From an uncultured Gammaproteobacteria bacterium (GTDB lineage: Bacteria; Patescibacteriota; Patescibacteriia; UBA9570; XYC2-FULL-38-9): a DNA stretch of 64,000 nucleotides. Below, in pieces: positions 3,423-63,637 of this stretch (its first letter is position 1; every line of letters starts with the position of its first letter). Under the pieces are notes generated by a model that saw only the letters and a list, made by a program, of their open reading frames with translations, did not search any database and was not told the origin of the DNA. The stretch spans positions 122,115 through 186,114 of the forward strand of contig CAYFNF010000001.1 in NCBI GenBank assembly GCA_964344485.1, read 5' to 3'. The translations under genes and the position numbers were made by a program.

Positions 3423-3492
3423 TTGACATATATATGGTGTGTGTCAGTGTAGGAAAACAACGAACTGTGAGGTTACAAGAGGGGAAAGGAGG
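3423..3492 (+). promoter_or_regulatory. Candidate sigma70 -35 box (TTGACA at 3423-3428) plus strong SD (GGAGGTG) serving the high-GC ORF
   Basis: Perfect TTGACA. The -10 is unclear. aaaGGAGGTGgtcc precedes the ATG at 3499. Confidence 0.35.
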
Positions 3493-3498
3493 TGGTCC

Positions 3499-3942
3499 AT
3501 GAGGACCATGAACCTGGCTGTCGACCCCAGGATCCAGAATGCGTTCATGCGTGCGGCCATGCACGCGGTTCGGCATCACGTGATCCAGGCCACGAGCGCG
3601 CACAAGGAGGCGTTCGACACGCCCGCGTTCCAGGGCACGCTGATGCGCGTGGTGTTGAGTCCGACGAACCGGAAGTCCGAGCGGCGGATCGACCGGTGGA
3701 GCATGACGTTCTGGATCGAGGACGTCGGGCAGAGCCGTGACCAGATCATCGAGTCGGTCGTGGTAGCGCTCGAGAACATGGACATGTTCTGCTACGTGGG
3801 CAAGCGGGGTGTCGCCAACCCCGTTCCCACGGCGCGGGTGATGTTCATGGCCAAGATCCCGGCACGCGAGGGCTTCCAGCTCTTCCAGCGCACCTGCGAG
3901 TGCGGCGCCGTGCGTACGGCATCGGATCCGGGCCTGCTCTAG
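3499..3942 (+). CDS. Hypothetical protein, 147 aa, high GC (compositionally foreign)
   Basis: Starts MRTMNLAVD with a strong SD. GC is much higher than the flanks. No recognisable motif. Confidence 0.55.
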   Translation: MRTMNLAVDPRIQNAFMRAAMHAVRHHVIQATSAHKEAFDTPAFQGTLMRVVLSPTNRKSERRIDRWSMTFWIEDVGQSRDQIIESVVVALENMDMFCYVGKRGVANPVPTARVMFMAKIPAREGFQLFQRTCECGAVRTASDPGLL

Positions 3943-4999: not shown

Positions 5000-5629
5000 A
5001 TGTTCTTTCACATTCTGCAGGCGTTCGTGGAGCTGGTCCGTGATGTGATCCGCAAACCCGTGGAGTTCATTCACGTAGAGATGAACTGGTCGGTGCTGAA
5101 CCCGCTGGTGTGGCTGCCGCATACTCTGTCTCCGGACATGACCATCTCTTCGCTGAGCGAGCTGGACGCGCAAGCGCTGGTGGATCTCGGGTACGAAGCA
5201 GTGATCATTGACTACGACGGCGTGATTGTGGACTACCACACCGAGGAGCCACCCGCGCCCGTGGTCGTGGAAGCGCTGCAGCGGTTGTCCAAGCACTTGC
5301 GCGTGCGAATTCTGTCGAACCGCCGCGGGAAGCTGCTGCAGTCGCTGCACGATGCGCTCCCTCAGTTCCCGGTAGTCCGCTCGTGTAAGATGAAGCCACA
5401 CAAGGAACCGTACCTGACCGCAGCAAAGACCTTGGGCGTAGAGATCACCAAGACGGTGTTGATCGAGGACCGGCTCGCCACTGGGATCGCGGGAGGTAAC
5501 CGCGTGGGGATGTACACGGTGTGGATGCATCCATCGCTGGGCCGTGATCGAGAGCCTTGGAACGTCTGGCTCTATCGCTTGGTTGAGGAGAAGCTACTCT
5601 CCTTGTACAACACGCTGCGTTTGACCTGA
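5000..5629 (+). CDS. HAD-superfamily IIIA phosphatase, YqeG-like; high GC
   Basis: Motifs VIIDYDGVI (DxD nucleophile) and CKMKPHKEPYLTAAKTLGVE...VLIEDRLATGIAGGNRVGMYTVW. GGAGG is 8 nt upstream of the ATG. Confidence 0.7.
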   Translation: MFFHILQAFVELVRDVIRKPVEFIHVEMNWSVLNPLVWLPHTLSPDMTISSLSELDAQALVDLGYEAVIIDYDGVIVDYHTEEPPAPVVVEALQRLSKHLRVRILSNRRGKLLQSLHDALPQFPVVRSCKMKPHKEPYLTAAKTLGVEITKTVLIEDRLATGIAGGNRVGMYTVWMHPSLGRDREPWNVWLYRLVEEKLLSLYNTLRLT

Positions 5630-27754: not shown

Positions 27755-27778
27755 AAAAAAAATGAGGACAGGGTCCTC
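27755..27778 (-). terminator. Rho-independent terminator of the high-GC LOG-family gene
   Basis: On the minus strand: GAGGAC-CCT-GTCCTC hairpin followed by T8, overlapping the stop codon by 1 nt. Confidence 0.7.
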
Positions 27779-28545
27779 TAGACGCTAGCGCTTCGCAACT
27801 GCCCGGTCAGGGCACGTTCCGCCTTGGCGCGGTTGCCGTTGGCGTCCAGCACATGGGCGACCGCTTCGGCGGGCTCGTCCGTGAACAGGACATGGAACTG
27901 CTGCTTGCTCAGGGTCTGCCAGTCGCACATGTGCGACAGGTCGGCTCTCACGCACTTCCAGTGATCCTTGCCCAGCAGAGCCAGGGGGATGCGTCGCCCG
28001 ATCTCCTGACCGAGCTGCAGCTTCTGGATGAACATGAACAGCTCGAGTCGGGTCCCGATGCCTCCGGGCGGGAAGATTCCTCCGTCCGCCAGGATCTCCA
28101 TGATCTCGATTCGGGTGCCGAAGAGCTGGTTCGCGATGTAGATGTCCACTGCGGACGGGTCCATCATCTCGAACACTTGTCCATCGGCTTGCCGGATGAC
28201 GATCCGCACTCCGATCAGAGGCTGGGTGTGCGCGTGGACACGGTGCGTCCTGAAGGAGGTCTGCACGATCTCGGGCAGGCCGGGGCAGTGTCCGGAGATC
28301 TGAGCCGCTCCTTGCTCGCCGAGCAGGCGACCGGTCTCGACCATGTGGTCAGCGTACTGCGCATGCAGGCGCGGGGCCTCATCAGCCGAACGGGCGGATC
28401 CGAAGATGCCGATGACCGGCCCGATGTGTGGCTTGAGGAAGTCCGCGTATGCTCGCGTCGTCATGCCGAACTGGTAGACACCTTGCTGCAGCAGCGCCAG
28501 TTGAGCGACCGCTCGTGGGTCGCTGCTCCAAAACTCTCTCGTCAT
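27778..28545 (-). CDS. LOG-family protein (TIGR00730 Rossmann-fold nucleotide-binding; cytokinin riboside 5'-monophosphate phosphoribohydrolase-like); high GC
   Basis: PGGIGTRLELF matches the LOG PGGxGTxxE motif. Start MTREFW has GGAGGAG 8 nt upstream. The + strand ORF 27853..28605 is its antisense shadow. Confidence 0.65.
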   Translation of the reverse strand: MTREFWSSDPRAVAQLALLQQGVYQFGMTTRAYADFLKPHIGPVIGIFGSARSADEAPRLHAQYADHMVETGRLLGEQGAAQISGHCPGLPEIVQTSFRTHRVHAHTQPLIGVRIVIRQADGQVFEMMDPSAVDIYIANQLFGTRIEIMEILADGGIFPPGGIGTRLELFMFIQKLQLGQEIGRRIPLALLGKDHWKCVRADLSHMCDWQTLSKQQFHVLFTDEPAEAVAHVLDANGNRAKAERALTGQLRSASV

Positions 28546-28701
28546 GTTAGGTGCTCCTCCGTCGATTCTGCGACGAAACGATTTCTGGTTATCAACGTGG
28601 GTTGATGCCGATACTGTATGCTCTTTTCTGCTACTTGTCAAAGCGTGAGTGAATGCATGAAATGTGGTATACTACCACGCGTAAATAGTAGTAATAGTTA
28701 T

Positions 28702-33118: not shown

Positions 33119-33319
33119 GATCTGTTCTTTATATCCAAGAACTGGAACTGTCACGAGGAGAGAGTGACAATCCAACAACAGGGACGACCCAGAGACGCCT
33201 GCTAAGTATTAAATAAGACGCCGAATTTTTTGCAGCCTTATTTAGTAGCTAGCAGCCGTCCTGGACAAGTCGGGAATCGCCTACGGGCGTGAACCGCACG
33301 GTCTGCATCGGAGGTACTC

Positions 33320-33505
33320 ATGACCCTGACCCTGTCCCTGTCCGCCCTCGCCCTCACCGCCCTGCTGCTCTCGGTCCGCTCGCGCCGCATCGCGCGCGAG
33401 ACCGCCGCCGCGGAGTTCGAGGCCCGCTACGCCGTCGTCTACGACCGCCCGGTCACGATCGACACCGAGCGCTGGCTGACCGCCGGCATGGCCACGAGCA
33501 AGTAG
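33320..33505 (+). CDS. Small hypothetical membrane protein (61 aa), high GC
   Basis: GGAGG is 7 nt upstream of the ATG. N-terminal TM helix LTLSLSALALTALLLSV. The alternative overlapping ORF 33289..33633 is Arg-rich and less likely. Confidence 0.4.
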   Translation: MTLTLSLSALALTALLLSVRSRRIARETAAAEFEARYAVVYDRPVTIDTERWLTAGMATSK

Positions 33506-33622
33506 GAGCGCCTGAGGCGCAGAGGAGCGCCCGGCCAGGGTTCATCGCGACGCATACGCTCGCGACCTGGCCGCTCCTTCCCTGCAGTGTTACCCAACAC
33601 TTCAGAGAAGGAGTACAAAAAG

Positions 33623-33645
33623 ACCGCGTTTAAAGCGCGGTTTTA
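33623..33645. terminator. Bidirectional rho-independent terminator
   Basis: accgcg-tttaaag-cgcggt flanked by A5 and T4. Confidence 0.55.
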
Positions 33646-33789
33646 TAGTATTGCGTAATATGGAGTTTTCCCTTATGCTGAGCAAGTAATAATTGCAGAG
33701 CGCTACGTGATATTGCCTCGGACTAAAACCCGGCTCACGCCGGGCCAACCGTCCTGTGGTAATATCACCTCCGCGCTCTATAAAAGAAT

Positions 33790-51055: not shown

Positions 51056-51130
51056 GGAGTTTTTTTGCGTAGTCAGACCTTGACTTTTTTTATTGTCAGT
51101 GATATACAAGTGGCTTGAGGACGAAGGGAG

Positions 51131-51499
51131 ATGTACTGTATGCTGGACCGACAGTTGATTCAGCAGTTCGTAGAGAAGGGTTTCCGGTGGACCGTGGTGG
51201 TCACCCAGGACAGCGGTGGTCTCGAACCCGAGGCCGTGGCTGCGGTGGCCAACGCCAGGCGCATGGGATGCGCGGTCGGGTGCGTATTCGTGGGTGTCTC
51301 CGCGGAGGCGCTCGAAGCCGAGACTCGGGACTTCGGTCTGGCGCTCGCGCGCGCGTGCGACGAGGCCGAGCCGGTGGTCGAAGACAGCATCACCATGAGT
51401 GAGTTCGGCACGGACCGCAAGTTCACCCTGGTGATCTTCCCGCCGATCAATGCCGAGATCCAGGCCTGTTCGGATCGCGAGCCCGTAGAGCGCCCCTGA
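51131..51499 (+). CDS. Hypothetical protein, 122 aa, high GC (compositionally foreign)
   Basis: AAGGGAG SD upstream of the ATG at 51131 (or 51140). GC far above the flanks. No recognisable motif. Confidence 0.45.
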   Translation: MYCMLDRQLIQQFVEKGFRWTVVVTQDSGGLEPEAVAAVANARRMGCAVGCVFVGVSAEALEAETRDFGLALARACDEAEPVVEDSITMSEFGTDRKFTLVIFPPINAEIQACSDREPVERP

Positions 51500-51523
51500 T
51501 CTACCAACGCCTCATTTTTTTAT

Positions 51524-51546
51524 ACAAAAAAACCGCAGTAGCTGCG
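51524..51546 (-). terminator. Rho-independent terminator of the metallophosphoesterase gene
   Basis: On the minus strand: ccgcag-cta-ctgcgg hairpin followed by T8. Confidence 0.6.
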
Positions 51547-51557
51547 GCGCAAGTAGT

Positions 51558-55671: not shown

Positions 55672-55980
55672 ATGAAATTAGATAAAAAAGCCATAGATCA
55701 TCTAAAAAAGTTGGCGAAGATGGACTTAACCACTGAAGAAGAAGAGGTCCTTCCGTCCCAGCTTTCAGATATCTTGGATTTTGTTGAAAAGCTAAGTGAA
55801 GTGGATACTGATAATGTTCCTCCAACGAGTCAGGTCACTGGACTGGAAGATATCATGCGCGCAGATGAAGCGACCTATACATTTGAAAAATCTGACATGA
55901 CGAAGTGTATGCCGGACACTGATGAGCAAGGTCATTTGCGTGTGCACGCAGTATTTACTGATGACAGCCCTAGCCATTAA
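55672..55980 (+). CDS. gatC: Aspartyl/glutamyl-tRNA amidotransferase subunit C
   Basis: 103 aa: MKLDKKAIDHLKKLAKMDLTTEEEE...DTDNVPPTSQV is the GatC pattern. Directly upstream of gatA. Confidence 0.8.
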   Translation: MKLDKKAIDHLKKLAKMDLTTEEEEVLPSQLSDILDFVEKLSEVDTDNVPPTSQVTGLEDIMRADEATYTFEKSDMTKCMPDTDEQGHLRVHAVFTDDSPSH

Positions 55981-55984
55981 TACT

Positions 55985-57433
55985 ATGGAGATTTCGAGCA
56001 TACGAGAGTTACGAAAACAATTGGATGATAAAAAAGTATCGGTCAAAGAAGTAGTAGACCATTACTTGAAGCGCATCACACAGACCAATAGTGATCTGAA
56101 TAGTTTTATTACTGTAGATACCAAGCATGCACGTGAGCATGCGGAACATGCACAAGCAGAAATCGATAACAATAATCAGAGCCCGTTGACTGGTATTCCA
56201 TATGCGGTGAAAGACATTTTCTGCACGCGCGGGTTGCGTACCACCGCAGGATCTAGAATTTTAAATGAGTACGTCCCTCCGTATTCAGCTACTTCAGTTG
56301 AGAGATGTAAAGACGCGGTGTTGTTAGGAAAGACAAACTGTGATGAATTTGCGCAAGGAGCATCGAATGAATACTCTGCGTTTGGTCCTGCAAAAAATCC
56401 GTATGATCTAGAGCGTGTTCCTGGTGGATCTTCTGGAGGTTCAGCAGTATCAGTAGCATCTGGGCAAGCGCTGTTTGCGTTAGGTACGGACACCGGTGGA
56501 TCCACACGTCTGCCAGCTGGGTTTTGTAACGTAGTAGGCTTTAAGCCGACCTACGGCCGTATTTCTCGATATGGAGTCATCTCCATGGCGTCATCTTTTG
56601 ACACTGTGAGCATATTCTCACGTTCTGTCGCAGATAGTGCATATGTACTTCGAGAGCTTGCTGGTGAGGATCCACTCGATTCAACAACTCCTCGTGTTCC
56701 AGTGGACGACTATGTGCATGAGATAGAGCAATCTATACAAGGACTACGCATCGGTGTACCAAAAGAGGCGATCGAATTAGAAGGGCTGGACCCGCACGTT
56801 CGTACGATCCATGACGAAACAGTCAAATTATTGAGCGGTTTAGGCGCTGAGGTCGTAGAAGTATCGCTTCCGCACATCATGAAATACGGGTTAGCCACAT
56901 ACTATATTCTCATTCCTTCTGAAGTGAGTTCGAATATGGCACGATTTGATGGTATGCAGTACGGAGAGCCTGCTGCAGGAGCTGAAACTCTAGAGCAAGC
57001 GTTTGTGCGCACTCGTCAGCTTGGATTTGGTCCTGAGGTACGACGCCGTGTCATGACTGGCACGTTTTGTTTGTCCGCCGGGTATGTGGATGCGTACTAT
57101 AAGAAAGCGCAGAAAGTGCGAACACTGATTCGGGAGGACTTTGCAGAAGCGTTTCGAGTGGTTGATTTACTATTCATGCCGACCTCTTCAACACCTCCGT
57201 TCAAGATAGGAGCACAGGACCAGGATCCAATTGCAATGTACTTAGCTGATATCTTTATGGTGCCTGCAACTCTTGCAGGAGTGCCCGCAATATCTCTGCC
57301 AGCAGGCGCAGTAGGTAATTTGCCTATCGGTATGCAGCTCATTGGCCCGCAGTTTAAGGATTCTGTGGTTCTCAGAGCTGCGCATGCATTAGAGCAGGAG
57401 ATTCCGGCCCCATCATGCTCATTAGCAGTGTAA
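55985..57433 (+). CDS. gatA: Glutamyl-tRNA(Gln) amidotransferase subunit A (amidase signature family)
   Basis: Amidase signature GGSSGGSAVSVASG. 482 aa from MEISSIREL. Confidence 0.9.
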   Translation: MEISSIRELRKQLDDKKVSVKEVVDHYLKRITQTNSDLNSFITVDTKHAREHAEHAQAEIDNNNQSPLTGIPYAVKDIFCTRGLRTTAGSRILNEYVPPYSATSVERCKDAVLLGKTNCDEFAQGASNEYSAFGPAKNPYDLERVPGGSSGGSAVSVASGQALFALGTDTGGSTRLPAGFCNVVGFKPTYGRISRYGVISMASSFDTVSIFSRSVADSAYVLRELAGEDPLDSTTPRVPVDDYVHEIEQSIQGLRIGVPKEAIELEGLDPHVRTIHDETVKLLSGLGAEVVEVSLPHIMKYGLATYYILIPSEVSSNMARFDGMQYGEPAAGAETLEQAFVRTRQLGFGPEVRRRVMTGTFCLSAGYVDAYYKKAQKVRTLIREDFAEAFRVVDLLFMPTSSTPPFKIGAQDQDPIAMYLADIFMVPATLAGVPAISLPAGAVGNLPIGMQLIGPQFKDSVVLRAAHALEQEIPAPSCSLAV

Positions 57434-57526
57434 TCCACTGTTTATCCATAGGATCGATTGGATCTATAGACGGGCATTGTATTCTATGTTATAATATGTA
57501 TGTAAGATTTCGAAAAAATTACCAAT

Positions 57527-57904
57527 ATGGCCAAAAACACTATTCTCCTCGTCGAAGACGACGAAATGCTTCACGCCATGTATACTCAGAAGTTTCAGAA
57601 AGAAGGATACGAAGTTCTGTCTACTTATAATGGAGCTGAAGGAATTCAGATGGCAGACGAGCATCAGCCTGCTGTTATCCTATTAGATATCATCATGCCG
57701 AAAATGGATGGATTTGTTGCGCTTAAGAAGATCAAGAAGAATGAAAAAACCAAAGAGATCCCAGTAATTCTGCTAACGAATCTCGGTCAAGAAGAGGATA
57801 TCCGAAAAGGAAAGGAGTTAGGAGCAACGGATTACTTTATTAAAGCAAACCACACACCGCAAGAAGTCGTCGACAAGGTAAAGGAAGTACTTGCTGGAAT
57901 GTAG
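57527..57904 (+). CDS. Stand-alone response-regulator receiver domain (CheY-like)
   Basis: ILLVEDDEML...ILLDIIMPKMDG...ILLTNLGQ. No output domain and no kinase nearby. An extended -10 TGtTATAAT lies about 35 nt upstream. Confidence 0.8.
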   Translation: MAKNTILLVEDDEMLHAMYTQKFQKEGYEVLSTYNGAEGIQMADEHQPAVILLDIIMPKMDGFVALKKIKKNEKTKEIPVILLTNLGQEEDIRKGKELGATDYFIKANHTPQEVVDKVKEVLAGM

Positions 57905-57982
57905 GCGGTGTTGTTCACATCAAGAATTTGCCCTTCGGGGCTTTTTTTGATATTAATAGAGTGCAATAATTAAAAGAAATGT

Positions 57983-58447
57983 ATGGAACGAACACTGATT
58001 ATCATTAAACCAGATGCGCTTCAGCGAAATTTACTCGGTGACATTGTGAGCCGATTTGAGCGTAAAGGGTTAAAGATCATTGGACTGAAGATGGAGCATA
58101 TCTCTGATCTAAAGATCGAAGAGCACTATGCGCATCATGCAGATAAACCATTTTTTCAGAATTTGAAAAAATTTATGCAGTCCGCTCCTGTAGTGCTTAT
58201 GGCGCTTGAAGGGCTAGAAGCAGTAGAGGCAGTACGCTTAATTACAGGCGATACAAAAGGGCGAGCAGCAGATGGCGGGACTATTCGAGGTGATTACGCA
58301 ATGAGCGTACAAGCGAATATTGTGCACGCGTCTGATTCTGTAGAGAATGCGAATTTAGAGCTAGAACGATTCTTTTCAGAAGATGAGCTGTTTGATTACA
58401 AGAAGATGGACTTTGAGTGGGTGTATTCAGAAGATGAGCGTGAATAG
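57983..58447 (+). CDS. ndk: Nucleoside diphosphate kinase
   Basis: MERTLIIIKPDALQRNLLGDIVSRFERKGLKIIGLKM plus the NIVHASDS active-site His region. Confidence 0.9.
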   Translation: MERTLIIIKPDALQRNLLGDIVSRFERKGLKIIGLKMEHISDLKIEEHYAHHADKPFFQNLKKFMQSAPVVLMALEGLEAVEAVRLITGDTKGRAADGGTIRGDYAMSVQANIVHASDSVENANLELERFFSEDELFDYKKMDFEWVYSEDERE

Positions 58448-58470
58448 CAGTTAATTTGTCGTATTGTTGA

Positions 58471-58495
58471 GCCGCCTCGCTATGAGGCGGTTTTT
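58471..58495 (+). terminator. Rho-independent terminator after ndk
   Basis: gccgcctc-gctat-gaggcggc-like hairpin followed by T5. Confidence 0.65.
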
Positions 58496-58764
58496 CATAA
58501 TGTATGCAATGGTGTGTCCTTGAAAAAAGCTCTTAAAAATGGTCTTACAGCTTGTGAGTGATGCAGTAATTACGTAAATATGCACTTATGCACAGAATAG
58601 TTGACAAACATGAGAGACTGCATTACTCTTACTGCTAATTATGAAACACGCAATCAGAACAACTCAGGAATGTGAACAGTATTACAGCCTTAGCTGGTAT
58701 GCTTTCTTTTTTAGCTTTGAGCGCCAGAAGGTTGATGTGTAATTAATTTCTATTTCTTTCACGA

Positions 58765-58796
58765 GCAGCCTTCTGGAACGAAGGCTGCTTTATTTT
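58765..58796 (+). terminator. Strong hairpin plus U-tract upstream of the high-GC GCS2-like gene (terminator, insulator or attenuator)
   Basis: gcagccttc-tggaac-gaaggctgc (9-bp stem) followed by TTTATTTT. No gene lies between ndk's own terminator and this element. Confidence 0.5.
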
Positions 58797-58907
58797 GTGG
58801 CTGATGTAGGCAGCGGTATATACTGCTCTCTACATTGGCTCCGAAATCAAGACGATTCGCAAGCCATACCATCACATCGACAGCAGCAGACGAGGAATAA
58901 GGAGGAG

Positions 58908-59777
58908 ATGAAACCGACTGCACTAATCCCGTATGAGGGAGTCGATGGGCCCGCCGCGTTCTTCGCTGCCTTGGAGCAGCGTTTCGAAAGAAACAGAAGG
59001 AACGGATACGGCACCGCGTTCGGCGCGGAGATCGAAGGACACCTGCACGTGGGGGACGACCCCATGCCCGCCCTGCGGGGACCTGAATTCCTTCAGCTCC
59101 GTGCGGAGCAATGCTCACCCGAGCGTCGCGCTCACAACGGATCGGATTCACTGTTCGCACCTGAGGTGCACCTCGGAAGGATCGAAGCACTCACGGTACC
59201 AGCACCGGACGTCGACGGCATGATGGCCGAAGTCACGCTCCGACTGCAGGAGATCGACGAGACTGCTGCCCGCATGGGTCTGAACTTCCGCTGTGATCCG
59301 ATCATCCCGATTCCGGATGACCATGAAACCGTGGTCCTCCCTGAACTGCTCGACTCCGAGCGCTACCAAGCACTGTCACCCCAAGCCGCTCGCGCGGCAC
59401 TCTCGGTCGCTGCACTGCAGTTCCAGAGGGGATGCCAGTCCATGGATCAAGCGCTCGGAATGTACGAAGCAGTCCGGCGTGCGTTGCCGGACCTACGTTT
59501 CATGGGAGATCTCACGGATGGTCGCCGACAGCGGCTCTACGAACTCTGGGTCGACCCAGAGATGGCTAGACCGCCGGTACTCCGGAATCGCATGCAAGTC
59601 TACGCGCACGCGAGACGCTACGGCTGGGTGAACGCGCCCAAGGGGTGGTGGTCCGACGTGAGGATCAACATGATGAACGGGACCGTGGAACTACGGTCAC
59701 CCGACGCATCGCGTGACCTCGCGCACATTCGGACTCTGGGCGAAGCCTTCGCTCACATCACCGCACCCTACGCGTAA
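58908..59777 (+). CDS. GCS2/YbdK-like carboxylate-amine ligase (short form, 289 aa); high GC
   Basis: AGGAGG precedes the ATG. TAFGAEIEGHLHVGD resembles YbdK FTLGIELEMQVV. GTVELRSPDAS resembles YbdK GTVEVRVMDTP. Confidence 0.5.
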   Translation: MKPTALIPYEGVDGPAAFFAALEQRFERNRRNGYGTAFGAEIEGHLHVGDDPMPALRGPEFLQLRAEQCSPERRAHNGSDSLFAPEVHLGRIEALTVPAPDVDGMMAEVTLRLQEIDETAARMGLNFRCDPIIPIPDDHETVVLPELLDSERYQALSPQAARAALSVAALQFQRGCQSMDQALGMYEAVRRALPDLRFMGDLTDGRRQRLYELWVDPEMARPPVLRNRMQVYAHARRYGWVNAPKGWWSDVRINMMNGTVELRSPDASRDLAHIRTLGEAFAHITAPYA

Positions 59778-59783
59778 ACTCCG

Positions 59784-59818
59784 AGGGGTTCTGGCCCAGC
59801 CCCTCAACCACTTTTTTC
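59784..59818 (+). terminator. Rho-independent terminator after the GCS2-like gene
   Basis: gagggg-ttctggcccag-cccctc followed by T6. Confidence 0.6.
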
Positions 59819-60025
59819 TAACTAATTCGTTTACATATAGTTGTACAACAGCACACTACGGTTATGAACAGTCAATTACAGTCTCACAGTTCAATAGAGA
59901 GTACCAATCGGTCATTCTGCGCCCGACAGTCTTTCTCATGGCAATACTATTACTACTATTCCCTAGTTTTTGGAAGGCTGTTTAGTGTGCCATAGAGATT
60001 TTCTTTATTACGTATCGCGATAAAA

Positions 60026-60052
60026 CCCTTCCAAGAACTGGAAGGGTTTTTT
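60026..60052 (+). promoter_or_regulatory. Conserved leader hairpin plus U-tract (copy 1) upstream of 460-aa paralog A
   Basis: cccttcca-agaac-tggaaggg plus T6, followed by the conserved block tcttgagaacg...cgacaacc. It lies about 135 nt before the ATG. Confidence 0.5.
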
Positions 60053-60187
60053 CTTGTCTACAGATTTTTCAGCGCGATTAGTTCATCGCAATAAAAGATC
60101 TTGAGATAAGGATTCACGAGTCTTGAGAACGCTCTTCACAAACAAAGCGACAACAACCAACAACCACAGCAACACACGAGGTACAAG

Positions 60188-61570
60188 ATGAACATTCTGG
60201 ACACGCACATCGAGCAGATGGAGTCCCTGGACCTGGGCGGGTTGGAGACCCGCAACATCCAGATGTCCCTGAGTCCGTTCGGGATTCTTCCCGGATACCG
60301 TACGGTCTACCCCCAGGTGGTCGTGGAAGCGCTGGCGAGCATCTTCACGGAGTTCAACGCAGCGTTCGCGCCCCTGATCGAGGCCAACCGCGAGTGGGAG
60401 ACCGACTACCAGTACTGCAACAACGGTGCTGGCCCGGTGAACTGGATCGTGCAGGTGGACATGGTCGGTCTGCCGCAACCGTTCCTGGAGCAGGCTGCGA
60501 GCATGCCCATGCCTGCCGTACGAGCGCTCCTGCGCAACCGCATCTTCGAGATGGAGAATTCCTGGGCCATGTACCAGTTCCTGGAACGGGCCTTCTCTCG
60601 AGATGGACGCGATAGCTTCTACAAGCAGCGAGTTCGTGCTCTACTCGACGCGCTGCGAGCGAAGTTCGGGCGTCCGATCGCCCTACTCGCGGTCACGCAC
60701 GAGAAGTGGCACGCCATGCGCGCGATCGAGTTCGGCAAGCAAGAGGGCGAGCCGCTCACGGACGAAGAGGTGCGCGAGCTGACCGGCTTCGATCGGCTCT
60801 TCGGCCCCGACGACTTCCGCGCGTACCTGGCTGCGAACCACGGCAAGTGCGACTACCTGCTCTACGCGCGCACCAGCGACCCGATCGAGAAGCTCAAGAA
60901 GCCGAACATCGCAGTCGACCACCCGCTGCTCGCGGACCCGGAGATGCGACGCCTGATCAAGGCGCACGCGATCACGTTCAACGTGGACAATCCGGAGTGG
61001 CCGACCGGCAGTTCGCGGCGGATCAACGACACCAAGTGGTACATGCCGCCCATGGGCATGGCGTACCCGGTCCGTAGAGATCAGGACTACCTGCATGCAG
61101 CGTTTCTGGAACACCTGTTCCGCGGCCGCGCGTACGATCAGTACGACGATGAGCGTCTGAGCTCGGACTTCGAAGCGTACCTGTGCCTGCAAGGAGTCGA
61201 CATCGCAGCGGTTCATGCGGGCCAGGTGACGATGCGGGCCAAACCCGCTCAGGGCGCGTTCGGATGCTATGGACACGTGGTCGGTCCACTGACCAGGGGC
61301 AAGATCCGCTCCAAGATCCGACGGAACCTGCAGAAGCGCGGACCGTACATGCTGCAGCCTGAGATGCGTACCCCCATGGTCCAGGACCAGGCAAGTGGTG
61401 CTCGGTATCTGTACATCGATCGGAACTTCTTCGGAATGCTGGACGGTGCACCCGTCTTCCTCGGAGGATTCCGTTCCATGATGCCGGTGGATGCGCACGA
61501 AGCGCACAAGGGTCGCAATCACGGGAACCACCACACGGTACACGCCGAGGTGATCTCGGAAGAGATGTAG
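60188..61570 (+). CDS. Uncharacterised 460-aa protein, paralog A; high GC
   Basis: Conserved blocks shared with paralog B: AANREWETDYQYCNNG, PIALLAVTHEKWHA, GPYMLQPEM, FLGGFRSMMPV-AHEA-K-RNHG. Confidence 0.6.
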   Translation: MNILDTHIEQMESLDLGGLETRNIQMSLSPFGILPGYRTVYPQVVVEALASIFTEFNAAFAPLIEANREWETDYQYCNNGAGPVNWIVQVDMVGLPQPFLEQAASMPMPAVRALLRNRIFEMENSWAMYQFLERAFSRDGRDSFYKQRVRALLDALRAKFGRPIALLAVTHEKWHAMRAIEFGKQEGEPLTDEEVRELTGFDRLFGPDDFRAYLAANHGKCDYLLYARTSDPIEKLKKPNIAVDHPLLADPEMRRLIKAHAITFNVDNPEWPTGSSRRINDTKWYMPPMGMAYPVRRDQDYLHAAFLEHLFRGRAYDQYDDERLSSDFEAYLCLQGVDIAAVHAGQVTMRAKPAQGAFGCYGHVVGPLTRGKIRSKIRRNLQKRGPYMLQPEMRTPMVQDQASGARYLYIDRNFFGMLDGAPVFLGGFRSMMPVDAHEAHKGRNHGNHHTVHAEVISEEM

Positions 61571-61728
61571 CACGCCGCACTCTCCAAGCGAGAAGTCCGG
61601 CTTTTTTTTGCCAACAATAGCATTTTCTTCATGAAAAAGCCTTTATTTTTAAACCGAAATATGATGTAGCGCAATAAACGCTTTTTTTCTAGCATTTTCG
61701 CCATTTACTATGTTTTTTTTGCTAATAC

Positions 61729-61756
61729 TTGACTTTTTTTCAAAAACCTTTATGAT
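61729..61756 (+). promoter_or_regulatory. Sigma70-like promoter (TTGACT - 16 nt - TATGAT) about 370 nt upstream of paralog B
   Basis: TTGACT at 61729-61734 and TATGAT at 61751-61756. Implies a long 5' leader. Confidence 0.45.
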
Positions 61757-61938
61757 ATGTTAAATTCAACCTAGGAAAAATGGACTTACAACGCCTTTCA
61801 ACAATGCATCAAAAACGAATTAGCTGGTTTTTTAGCCCTCTAATTCTCATTGAGGTGATTTATTTTTTCGGAATTATTCACCGATTGGAAGGCCGCTTGA
61901 CGTGTACTAGATAACAAACAACTATCGTTTCACAGCAA

Positions 61939-61963
61939 CCCTTCCAATCCTGGAAGGGTTTTT
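61939..61963 (+). promoter_or_regulatory. Conserved leader hairpin plus U-tract (copy 2) upstream of 460-aa paralog B
   Basis: cccttcca-atcc-tggaaggg plus T5, followed by cttgtct and tcttgagaacg blocks shared with copy 1. Confidence 0.5.
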
Positions 61964-62125
61964 GCTTGTCTTGAGATGTTTCCATACGACACTACAGCCG
62001 TATTGAAACATCTTAAGAGGAGTGCAAACAACTCTTGAGAACGGTTCATTGACAGCAAAACCGACAACCTCACACCCGCCTACTACACCCGCCCATCTGT
62101 TCCCTCCTGCTCATCAGAGTGAAAG

Positions 62126-63508
62126 ATGCCTACCTTCGACACGCACTTCGACACTACCCCCTCTCTCTCGCTGGGTTCGGTGCTCGACCTCGCCATCCAG
62201 TCCACCATGGGCCCGTTCCAGGTGCTGCCTGGCTTCCACGCCACCTACCCGCCGGTCGTGCTGCAGGCGCTCGCCAACCTCTACCTCGAGTACAACGCGG
62301 CCTTCTCCCCGCTGATCGCGGCCAACCGCGAGTGGGAGACCGACTACCAGTACTGCAACAACGGCCACGGTCCGACCAACTTCGGTGTCCAGATCGACAT
62401 GGTCGGCCTGCCCCAGAGCTTCCTGGACGCGGTCGCAGACCTGCCCGAGCCCGTGGTGCGAGAGCTCCTGCGCTACAAGATCTTCGAGATCGAGAACAGC
62501 CTGGCCATGTACCAGCTCCTGATGCACCTGTTCCCGCGCACCGGAAGTCCGCACACCTTCTTCGACACCCAGTTCCGGGCAGTCCTGGAAGACCTGCGTC
62601 GCCGTCACGGCAAGCCGATCGCGCTGCTCGCGGTCACGCAGGAGAAGTGGCACGCCATACGCCAGACCGAGTTCGGCCTCACCGGCGACCAGCCGCTCTC
62701 CAGCGACGAGGTCCGACGCCTCACCGGCTTCGACCACTTCCTCGGTCCGGACGACTTCCACGCGCACCTCGCGGCGAACCACGGCGACTGCCAGTTCCTG
62801 CTCTACGCCCGCACTAGCCACCCGGTGGCCAAGCTCCGGAAGCCGGCCACGGCTGTGGAACACCCCCTGCTCAGCTTCCCCGAGATGCGGCGCATGATCA
62901 AGGCCCTGGCCATCACGTACAACGTGGATGATCCGGACTGGTCAACTGGAGACCCTCGCCACATCAACGATAGCAAGGGGTACATGCCGCCTATGCGCAT
63001 GGCGTTCCCGCTCGACAGCGAGACCGACTACCTCACGCTGGGGCTCTGCAAGCACCTCTCCCGCGGTCAGCCCTGCCAGACGTACACCGGGCAGCACTTC
63101 ACCGACAGCTTCGTCCAGTTCCTGCGCTCGCACGGCGTGGACCCGGCTGCGGTGGCCAGCGGAGAGATCATGCTGCGGGCCAAGCCCACGATGTGCTCCT
63201 ACGGCTGCTACGGTCACGTGTCTGGCGCGGTCCCGAACTCCAAGTTCCGCGGAGAAGTCCGCCGCAACATGCGCCTGCGTGGCCCGTACATGCTCCAGCC
63301 TGAGATGAAGACACCCAAGATCGTCAACGCCGACGATGGGCAGATGTACACGTACATCGATCGAGTCTTCTTCGGGATGGTCAACGGCGAGCCGTCGTTC
63401 CTCGGTGGGTTCCGGTCCATGATGCCGGTGCACGCCCACGAGGCGCTCAAGCGCCGCAACCACGGGAGCAACGAAACCGTCTGGGCCGAGGTCCGCTCGG
63501 AGTCCTAG
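62126..63508 (+). CDS. Uncharacterised 460-aa protein, paralog B; high GC
   Basis: Same length as paralog A, roughly 55-60% identical to it by eye, with the same conserved blocks. Confidence 0.6.
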   Translation: MPTFDTHFDTTPSLSLGSVLDLAIQSTMGPFQVLPGFHATYPPVVLQALANLYLEYNAAFSPLIAANREWETDYQYCNNGHGPTNFGVQIDMVGLPQSFLDAVADLPEPVVRELLRYKIFEIENSLAMYQLLMHLFPRTGSPHTFFDTQFRAVLEDLRRRHGKPIALLAVTQEKWHAIRQTEFGLTGDQPLSSDEVRRLTGFDHFLGPDDFHAHLAANHGDCQFLLYARTSHPVAKLRKPATAVEHPLLSFPEMRRMIKALAITYNVDDPDWSTGDPRHINDSKGYMPPMRMAFPLDSETDYLTLGLCKHLSRGQPCQTYTGQHFTDSFVQFLRSHGVDPAAVASGEIMLRAKPTMCSYGCYGHVSGAVPNSKFRGEVRRNMRLRGPYMLQPEMKTPKIVNADDGQMYTYIDRVFFGMVNGEPSFLGGFRSMMPVHAHEALKRRNHGSNETVWAEVRSES

Positions 63509-63513
63509 AACCA

Positions 63514-63548
63514 CCGCGCCTCATCAGCGAGGTCGCGGCCCTTTTTTT
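63514..63548 (+). terminator. Rho-independent terminator after paralog B
   Basis: An imperfect GC-rich hairpin (ccgcgcctc...gaggtcgcgg) followed by T7. Confidence 0.5.
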
Positions 63549-63637
63549 ACTAGAACGCAGATACTCATCTGTTCAAGCATTGAACGATTGAGCTATCTGT
63601 TCTATTATAAGAACATTGTTTTTTTGCAAAAACTCGT

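Follow-up and report, generated by a model that had tools for sequence, protein, structure and literature searches.

Predicted ATP-grasp ligases with an M20 partner, a short GCS2 gene and ORF-limited GC3 excess in a Kerfeldbacteria-like genome

The 64,000-nucleotide stretch of contig CAYFNF010000001.1 analysed here (the window) carries three GC-rich genes close to its 3' end, downstream of ndk: a short gene of the GCS2/YbdK type (gene 1) and two tandem paralogs encoding proteins of 460 amino acids (aa), which we call FAM460a and FAM460b. On the evidence of its predicted fold, FAM460 is a family of ATP-grasp acid-amine ligases that is new in sequence; the fold is a known one. In our best explanation, whose probability we put at about 70%, the window belongs to a genome related to Candidatus Kerfeldbacteria, and the region after ndk would contain two separate amide-bond modules. 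Module A would consist of FAM460a and FAM460b as enzymes of the permuted ATP-grasp class (with GspS, YgiC and eukaryotic glutathione synthetase, GS), acting with an M20 deacylase encoded downstream. Module B would be gene 1, which would be transcribed separately and is elsewhere paired with a class-I amidotransferase/C26-like gene. The genes concerned are the following.

58908..59777, + strand: gene 1, short GCS2/YbdK-type carboxylate-amine ligase (predicted), 289 aa
60188..61570, + strand: FAM460a, predicted ATP-grasp-fold acid-amine ligase of an unannotated family, 460 aa
62126..63508, + strand: FAM460b, tandem paralog of FAM460a, 460 aa
63638..64000, + strand: M20 DapE/ArgE-type metallo-deacylase, 5' part, cut by the window end (PF01546, 34.4 bits)

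An earlier note, made from the letters of the window, had listed the first three open reading frames (ORFs), and all are present on the + strand at the coordinates it gave. The two paralogs are, as it reported, of equal length, and they share 57% identity across all 460 residues. The conserved motifs it quoted can also be found, although the second copy has TQEKWHA in place of THEKWHA.

FAM460: distribution, predicted fold and M20 partner

An exhaustive profile search of 1.84 billion representatives collected 191 clusters of FAM460 and revealed no bridge to any known family. The homologues are 45-60% identical, are all unnamed or 'hypothetical', and come from metagenome-assembled genomes that are labelled as, or resemble, members of the Candidate Phyla Radiation (CPR). 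The names attached to the loci include Saccharibacteria, Microgenomates-type, Parcubacteria-type, Peregrinibacteria and Kerfeldbacteria. The family is largely restricted to CPR/Patescibacteria-type genomes. A metagenome scan for close relatives of FAM460b returned none above 56% identity, and our literature search found no paper on the family.

Structure prediction alone placed FAM460; family assignment at the level of sequence failed throughout, also with PADLOC (anti-phage defence) and PHROGs (phage) models, which gave 0 matches at E<=0.01. The AlphaFold2 model, built from a 55-sequence alignment, has a predicted local distance difference test (pLDDT) score of 95.7 and a predicted TM-score (pTM) of 0.93. 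Its sole significant match to the PDB with Foldseek is 3n6x, a putative glutathionylspermidine synthase. Structure comparison gave the following scores.

YgiC (7uka): 15.4
E. coli GspS: 14.1
3n6x: 13.3
Trypanothione synthetase: 12.7
Yeast, plant and nematode glutathione-synthetase-type proteins: 12.0-12.6
Fungal E-64 ligase Cp1B: 11.5 (17% identity, the highest)
RimK/LysX, Ddl, PurK, synapsin and inositol-phosphate kinases: 4-6.5

The predicted fold superposes on solved members of the GspS/YgiC/eukaryotic-GS class over most of the catalytic core. On this modelling we regard it as highly probable that FAM460 is an ATP-grasp amide ligase. The earlier note had proposed the 460-aa proteins as uncharacterised partners or substrates of the GCS2 enzyme; the AlphaFold2 model, Foldseek and the structure comparison instead identify them as predicted ATP-grasp-fold ligases in their own right.

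FAM460 has 59 invariant positions, many of them acidic or basic. These include Q89-x-D91 and E121-x-E123-N124, which lie N-terminal to K352, Y387/Q390, D411-R412, R429, E438 and R443. Going by order alone, this arrangement resembles the permuted R-x-D ... E-x-N ... Lys of the ligase class, and we suggest a mapping on that basis. In Cp1B the residues are R139, D141, E163 and N165 (PMC12568646). This enzyme couples epoxysuccinate to an amino acid, while YgiC and YjfC are peptide-spermidine ligases (PMC12568646).

Gene order was analysed in 58 loci from species-representative genomes and in further loci found by way of individual proteins. Of 62 informative cases, 54 have an M20 gene directly 3' of FAM460 in the same orientation. 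Unsupervised clustering of neighbours (five genes on either side) recovers the M20 family at 52 of 59 FAM460 loci and any other family at no more than 4. The spacer between FAM460 and M20 has a median of about 50 nt and the two genes sometimes overlap. Since M20 is the sole recurrent neighbour, we take FAM460 plus M20 to be the functional unit, and this gene order makes it probable that FAM460 acts with the deacylase. The spacer 5' of FAM460, with a median of about 340 nt, is exceptionally long by the standard of CPR genomes; intergenic regions in the window are about 107 nt.

The 120 residues of M20 that are visible in the window score 34.4 bits with PF01546 (cutoff 24.6), and they share 65% identity with the M20 encoded after the closest FAM460 relative, in locus L074. 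Full-length FAM460-linked M20 proteins carry PF01546 plus M20_dimer. Like the part seen in the window, they match the DapE/ArgE models of NCBIfam below the equivalog cutoffs: the best full-length partner reaches 176 bits against a cutoff of 381 for the DapE model, and scores for the DapE-ArgE subfamily are 167-178 against 217.6. They also match the model for LysK ([LysW]-lysine hydrolase) with E about 1e-17 to 1e-18.

By analogy with the permuted ATP-grasp class, FAM460 would use ATP/Mg2+ to convert a carboxylate to its acyl-phosphate and then transfer this to an amine, which would yield an amide. The DapE/ArgE-type M20 downstream would cleave amides of the N-acyl-amino-acid type. Between them the two enzymes would build a single amide-linked small molecule or acyl cap and afterwards take it off or recycle it. 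FAM460a and FAM460b would be old paralogs, probably with different substrates, each having its own leader with a terminator/antiterminator-like element. The analysis shows the folds, the distribution of the family, the gene order and the composition; this chemistry, the coupling to M20 and the regulation are our inference.

A number of results weigh against this interpretation. At the level of sequence, none of the 55 FAM460 members matches Pfam GSP_synth, GSH_synth_ATP or CP_ATPgrasp_2 at E<=1, no NCBIfam model matches the family, the 55-member profile has 0 matches at E<=10 among PDB sequences, and hhalign gives a probability of 0.1% against E. coli YgiC. At the level of residues, the R of R-x-D is apparently replaced by Q (Q89) and E-x-N reads E-x-E-N; catalytic competence is presumed. 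The 129-nt spacer between FAM460b and M20 in the window holds a terminator-like hairpin and a promoter-like site, and co-transcription of the two is for this reason only putative here. Gene order suggests a functional link and is silent on whether M20 reverses the ligase or serves another step. Finally, on a related contig (L001) genes for GCS2, an ATP-grasp-like protein and a glutamine amidotransferase (GATase) cluster with FAM460, which makes a link between modules A and B conceivable in the Kerfeldbacteria lineage.

Because FAM460 fails the sequence-model tests of the GspS and GS Pfam families, we place it among the ATP-grasp ligases as a variant at the level of a new family. Of the searches that the earlier note had proposed for these proteins, those with sequence models returned no match and the fold search placed them.

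Some 15 representatives of FAM460 clusters are longer, fused proteins (800-1200 aa) with an extra N-terminal region of about 500 aa (P0125, P0130, P0134-P0136, P0140, P0166, P0179, P0180 and P0190, and loci L025, L028, L035, L038 and L050). These extensions have no Pfam match, evolve fast, are of at least two unrelated types and give no functional clue.

Gene 1, a predicted short GCS2-type ligase

The earlier note had identified gene 1 as a carboxylate-amine ligase from its GCS2-like motifs. This is upheld: GxExEGH, EVHxGR and RIN..GTxExRxxD are present and invariant, and the predicted fold is that of GCS2 and glutamate-cysteine ligase (GCL), of the GCL/GS type, with conserved metal- and nucleotide-binding residues. 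TIGR02050 (the YbdK family) matches with E=2.4e-9 and 37 bits, against a cutoff of 176. A Pfam scan gives nothing at E<=1; the precomputed annotation of the identical protein P0121 lists PF04107. The protein falls short of the full architecture of about 370 aa, and 230 of 354 YbdK residues align. Judged on this model, gene 1 encodes a carboxylate-amine ligase of the GCS2/GCL fold, apparently intact although about 80 residues are missing at its C-terminus. Together with the predicted fold of FAM460, this bears out the suggestion of the earlier note that the region encodes amide-ligation chemistry.

We prefer the start codon ATG 58908 to GTG 58797 on the strength of the Shine-Dalgarno sequence AAGGAGGAG, the N-termini of homologues and the identical 289-aa P0121. 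The short form of GCS2 (264-289 aa) is represented by 8 clusters in 5.8 billion clusters, all from CPR-type contigs. We found no paper on this short family in CPR.

In three lineages the short GCS2 gene is located near ndk and beside a gene for a class-I glutamine amidotransferase/C26-like protein:

L069 10001-11607: short GCS2 and GATase/C26
L070 5377-6985: short GCS2 and GATase/C26
L008 8952-10870: short GCS2 and GATase/C26

This may be a second conserved two-gene unit.

Setting, leaders and composition of the GC-rich genes

The genes upstream are a Metallophos-family gene, ligA, gatC, gatA, a response regulator gene and ndk. These flanks are collinear with contigs L001 and L064, on which a Candidatus Kerfeldbacteria protein is encoded, and also with L007 and L008 of a third lineage; identities to the collinear relatives are 63-66% for LigA, 60-61% for GatA and 76% for NDK. 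The collinearity identifies the window as part of a Patescibacteria/CPR chromosome. Downstream of ndk, gene content varies among these relatives. At this position further genes rich in GC at third codon positions (GC3 0.82-0.90) occur in L001 (5129-8122) and L008 (13181-14617). They encode a 470-aa GCS2, a 378-aa protein with a faint match to the YheC/D ATP-grasp family and a 478-aa protein without a family, and are interleaved with GATase, cupin, M24 and M20 genes of normal GC.

The elements recognised around the three genes in the window are the following.

58763..58790, + strand: terminator-like hairpin plus T-run, 118 nt 5' of the gene 1 start (consensus scan)
59960..60187, + strand: FAM460a leader, with hairpin plus T-run, a second long hairpin and, ahead of the ATG, a tract rich in C and A with GAGG
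59970, + strand: TTGGAAGG copy in the FAM460a leader, able to pair with the 5' arm of the hairpin
60022-60050, + strand: hairpin plus T-run of the FAM460a leader, AAAACCCTTCCA-AGAAC-TGGAAGGGTTTT
61875..62125, + strand: FAM460b leader, paralogous to the FAM460a leader
61885, 61937-61960 and 61958-62029, + strand: TTGGAAGG, hairpin plus T-run and second hairpin of the FAM460b leader
63515..63549, + strand: GC-rich hairpin and T7 immediately 3' of the FAM460b stop, probable terminator (read by eye)

A terminator-like hairpin lies 118-166 nt 5' of each of the three starts, and a GC hairpin plus T-run can be read by eye after each of the three stop codons; the consensus scan did not flag the one at 63515..63549. 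Each of the three genes appears to be monocistronic. Both FAM460 leaders contain a hairpin AACCCTTCCA...TGGAAGGGTT(T)n, an upstream TTGGAAGG that copies its 3' arm, and a second long hairpin. Pairing of this copy with the 5' arm of the hairpin is a possible, putative alternative of the terminator/antiterminator type. Both leaders fold more stably than shuffled controls, with z = -3.3 (FAM460a) and -5.0 (FAM460b). Over a leader segment of 47 nt the two copies share 85% identity, compared with only 57% for their proteins, and this suggests constraint on the leader. Regulation of FAM460 by attenuation is put forward as a hypothesis only.

Two other candidates were rejected. A conserved leader peptide across TTGGAAGG fails because the small ORFs of the two leaders are in different frames. 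A riboswitch 5' of FAM460 is not supported by Rfam, which returns only sub-threshold, Phe_leader-like matches for the leaders in the window and none in 8 other loci. Upstream regions of FAM460 have sequence in common only among close relatives. Strong hairpins with a T-run occur 20-300 nt before the FAM460 start in 20 of 58 loci, against 0.5 in shuffles; as a separate element of FAM460, those of other loci are indistinguishable from terminators of the upstream gene.

The earlier note had described a single block of 63-66% GC, possibly acquired horizontally, in a surround of about 35%. The ORFs do have a GC excess (61.8%, 62.3% and 65.2% for gene 1, FAM460a and FAM460b), but the surround is less AT-rich than supposed, with 44.6% GC for the window background and about 42% for intergenic DNA. 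The corresponding GC3 values are 0.69, 0.82 and 0.90, compared with 0.38-0.48 for the genes nearby; the third codon position accounts for most of the excess, with GC1 and GC2 raised too. The single block is replaced by three separate islands, each limited to an ORF and divided by spacers of 410 and 555 nt. All spacers around the genes (460, 410, 555 and 129 nt) have 40-42% GC, and GC drops from about 0.6 to 0.3-0.4 within 20-40 nt past each stop codon. High GC is a property of each coding sequence and not of the region.

The junction between background and gene 1 (ndk-gene 1) is recovered at 99.9-100% identity in two independent metagenome assemblies and is therefore not an assembly chimera. 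Assemblies L072 (window 55952-59150) and L073 (56484-59000), from the same population, both stop within the first 240 nt of gene 1, which may reflect strain heterogeneity or a drop in coverage at the island.

This type of composition is not confined to the three genes. ORFs in the window are bimodal in GC3, with 44 at 0.30-0.50 and six or seven at 0.67-0.90, and there are at least 5 more similar single-ORF islands (GC3 0.77-0.86). The additional GC-rich features are:

1 to about 270: end of a GC-rich ORF
3439-3942: GC-rich ORF, 167 aa, no family
5000-5629: GC-rich ORF, HAD hydrolase
27778-28641, - strand: GC-rich ORF, LOG/Lysine_decarbox
33209-33660: GC-rich stretch of 452 nt, no convincing ORF
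51131-51499: GC-rich ORF, 122 aa, no family

Rfam gives no support for the stretch at 33209-33660 as a structured RNA. In the GC-rich set, C- and G-ending codons have frequencies of 0.43 and 0.385 (0.18 and 0.25 in the background), Arg accounts for 8.1% of residues (4.1%) and Lys for 2.7% (6.4%), and the codons CCC, GCC, TCC and CTG, rare in the host, are heavily used.

Two explanations of the GC excess have to be weighed, and mixtures of them, or other causes, take up the remaining probability. The first is that a gene-specific process acting in situ keeps some coding sequences GC-high, either by selection on mRNA or codons (for example, nuclease avoidance, stability or codon-gated translation) or by GC-biased gene conversion in recombining accessory genes. 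We give this somewhat less than an even chance. The boundaries are ORF-precise, and the excess recurs across diverged orthologues and inside operons. The orthologue of gene 1 in L008, in the same position and 56% identical, has a GC3 of 0.69 in a background of about 0.22, and LigA is only 63% identical between the window and L008, so that synonymous sites should be saturated. In L001, GC3 is 0.90 for GCS2, 0.82 for the 378-aa gene and 0.72 for FAM460, with a background of about 0.38. The FAM460 gene of L074, the closest FAM460 relative (60% identity, to FAM460a), has a GC3 of 0.70 and overlaps by 31 nt an M20 gene at 0.41; the M20 of the window, at 0.47, is also at background level. As the M20 proteins of these two loci are 65% alike and the FAM460 proteins 60%, the pair appears to have been co-inherited with its compositions kept apart. 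Of 49 loci, which are not phylogenetically independent, 42 have a higher GC3 in FAM460 than in its M20 partner (mean +0.13, Wilcoxon p=1.8e-10), and M20 itself is slightly below the locus median. The break of independent assemblies inside gene 1 is a further hint, of population heterogeneity. Against a process in situ, no mechanism is known for a GC3 shift of 0.4-0.5, gene conversion should hit the flanks too, and the shift in amino acids suggests long residence under GC pressure. Nor is the excess a constant of the families: the short GCS2 of Uhrbacteria and many FAM460 genes (for example, in L005) have background GC3.

The second explanation is recent horizontal acquisition from one or more high-GC donors, unameliorated, into a hot spot downstream of ndk. 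It accounts for the raised GC1, GC2 and GC3, the shifts in codons and in Arg and Lys, the bimodal GC3 and the variable gene content after ndk. It also fits the distribution of FAM460, sporadic yet with about 50% identity between phyla. In addition, the 122-aa ORF is an insertion (window 51094-51557) between genes that are adjacent in the syntenic contigs L001 (18441-18448) and L008 (1542-1653). At this insertion, however, the GC-rich part is the ORF alone; the promoter-like site, the Shine-Dalgarno sequence and the terminator that it has in common with the neighbouring gene are AT-rich, and flanking repeats are absent. The same applies to the three genes, where the excess stops 20-40 nt from the ORF ends and promoter, leader and terminator are at background GC. 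No integrase or transposase gene was found near the GC-rich genes in the window, the only tRNA gene is 50 kb off, and no convincing flanking repeats surround the three-gene region or four other GC islands. The co-inheritance of FAM460 with an M20 of background GC3, repeated in L074, the equally GC3-rich orthologue of gene 1 in L008 and the excess over M20 in most loci all argue in the same direction. Moreover, background GC3 does not exceed 0.62 in any of the sampled loci, whereas FAM460b reaches 0.90. We consider recent acquisition, serial and from unsampled high-GC sources, doubtful. What stands of the acquired block is its foreign-looking composition; the limitation to ORFs, the native-looking regulatory DNA, the lack of mobility genes and repeats, and the recurrence in diverged orthologues speak against it.

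We found no paper on GC3 heterogeneity or ORF-limited GC3 dimorphism in CPR, and as far as we could find an ORF-precise compositional dimorphism within a genome is undescribed for bacteria. A tentative combined proposal, rather unlikely as a whole, is that accessory genes of Kerfeldbacteria-like genomes show an ORF-precise GC3 dimorphism, 0.3-0.5 above the genome, caused by a gene-specific process and not by recent foreign origin, together with a CPR-specific FAM460-M20 amide cycle. An excess that is limited to ORFs, persists past expected saturation and is not shared by the partner gene makes a 'foreign DNA' reading insufficient. This affects the calling of horizontal gene transfer in metagenome-assembled genomes.

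A possible single glutathione-like pathway, and known systems for comparison

The three genes could also form one pathway acquired as a unit. In such a glutathione-like pathway the GCL-fold enzyme would make a gamma-glutamyl dipeptide, the GS/GspS-like FAM460 would extend it by adding an amino acid or polyamine, and M20 would degrade the product. The idea is chemically attractive, given the GCL fold of gene 1, the GS/GspS fold of FAM460 and the adjacency of the three genes on one strand. In addition, a span of 8 kb in L001 brings together a 470-aa GCS2, FAM460, a GATase/C26 gene and two M20 genes. The conservation of gene order is unsupportive. A GCS2 of any kind is found near FAM460 in only 2 of 59 loci (the window and L001), and these two are not orthologous (BLASTP E=0.04). 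The short GCS2 adjoins FAM460 in the window alone, so that the three-gene neighbourhood the earlier note had suggested looking for elsewhere is not kept; in L007/L008, L069 and L070 the short GCS2 pairs with GATase and there is no FAM460. The genes in the window are also separated by 410-555 nt with terminator-like hairpins. We judge a single pathway unlikely. It is very improbable that FAM460 acts as a kinase of the ATP-grasp fold or, like synapsin, binds ATP without being catalytic, in view of its constant amidohydrolase partner, which fits amide chemistry, and its many invariant acidic and basic residues.

The metabolism of CPR/Patescibacteria is strongly reduced, and a chemistry has been assigned to only a minority of their lineage-specific conserved proteins. 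Under the two-module reading, the FAM460 family gains a concrete type of reaction that can be tested, ATP-dependent ligation to an amide, and a fixed DapE/ArgE-like partner, and FAM460-M20 would be among the few CPR-specific two-gene units ready for enzyme assay.

Compared with YbdK/GCS2 and the glutamate-cysteine ligases, gene 1 is about 80 residues shorter and scores far below the family cutoffs. FAM460 has no detectable sequence similarity to YgiC/YjfC, GspS or trypanothione synthetase (Pfam GSP_synth). It differs from YgiC and GspS in the Q that apparently takes the place of the R of R-x-D and in its occurrence in CPR-type genomes. Compared with eukaryotic GS/homoglutathione synthetase and Cp1B, it is bacterial and CPR-specific, similarity is not significant, and no biosynthetic cluster surrounds it beyond M20. 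The nearest solved structure by Foldseek, 3n6x (Mfla_0391, deposited as a putative glutathionylspermidine synthase), has no profile match to FAM460 by sequence. The reported partners of the 3n6x family are alpha-E and transglutaminase-like domains, and none of these was seen among the conserved neighbours of FAM460.

The closest parallels to the proposed two-gene unit are systems in which an amide is made and later removed. In the GspS type the hydrolase is a fused CHAP amidase, whereas the partner of FAM460 is a separate M20 metallo-deacylase. LysX/ArgX with LysK resemble it in that an ATP-grasp ligase installs an amide and an M20 of the ArgE/DapE family removes it; unlike LysX/LysK, FAM460 has no LysW-like carrier or intermediate enzymes conserved beside it. 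The M20 may either reverse the ligation, as in the GspS synthetase/amidase, or carry out a later deprotection, as in LysX/LysK. Among these systems the hallmarks of FAM460 are its fixed DapE/ArgE-type partner and its CPR-restricted distribution.

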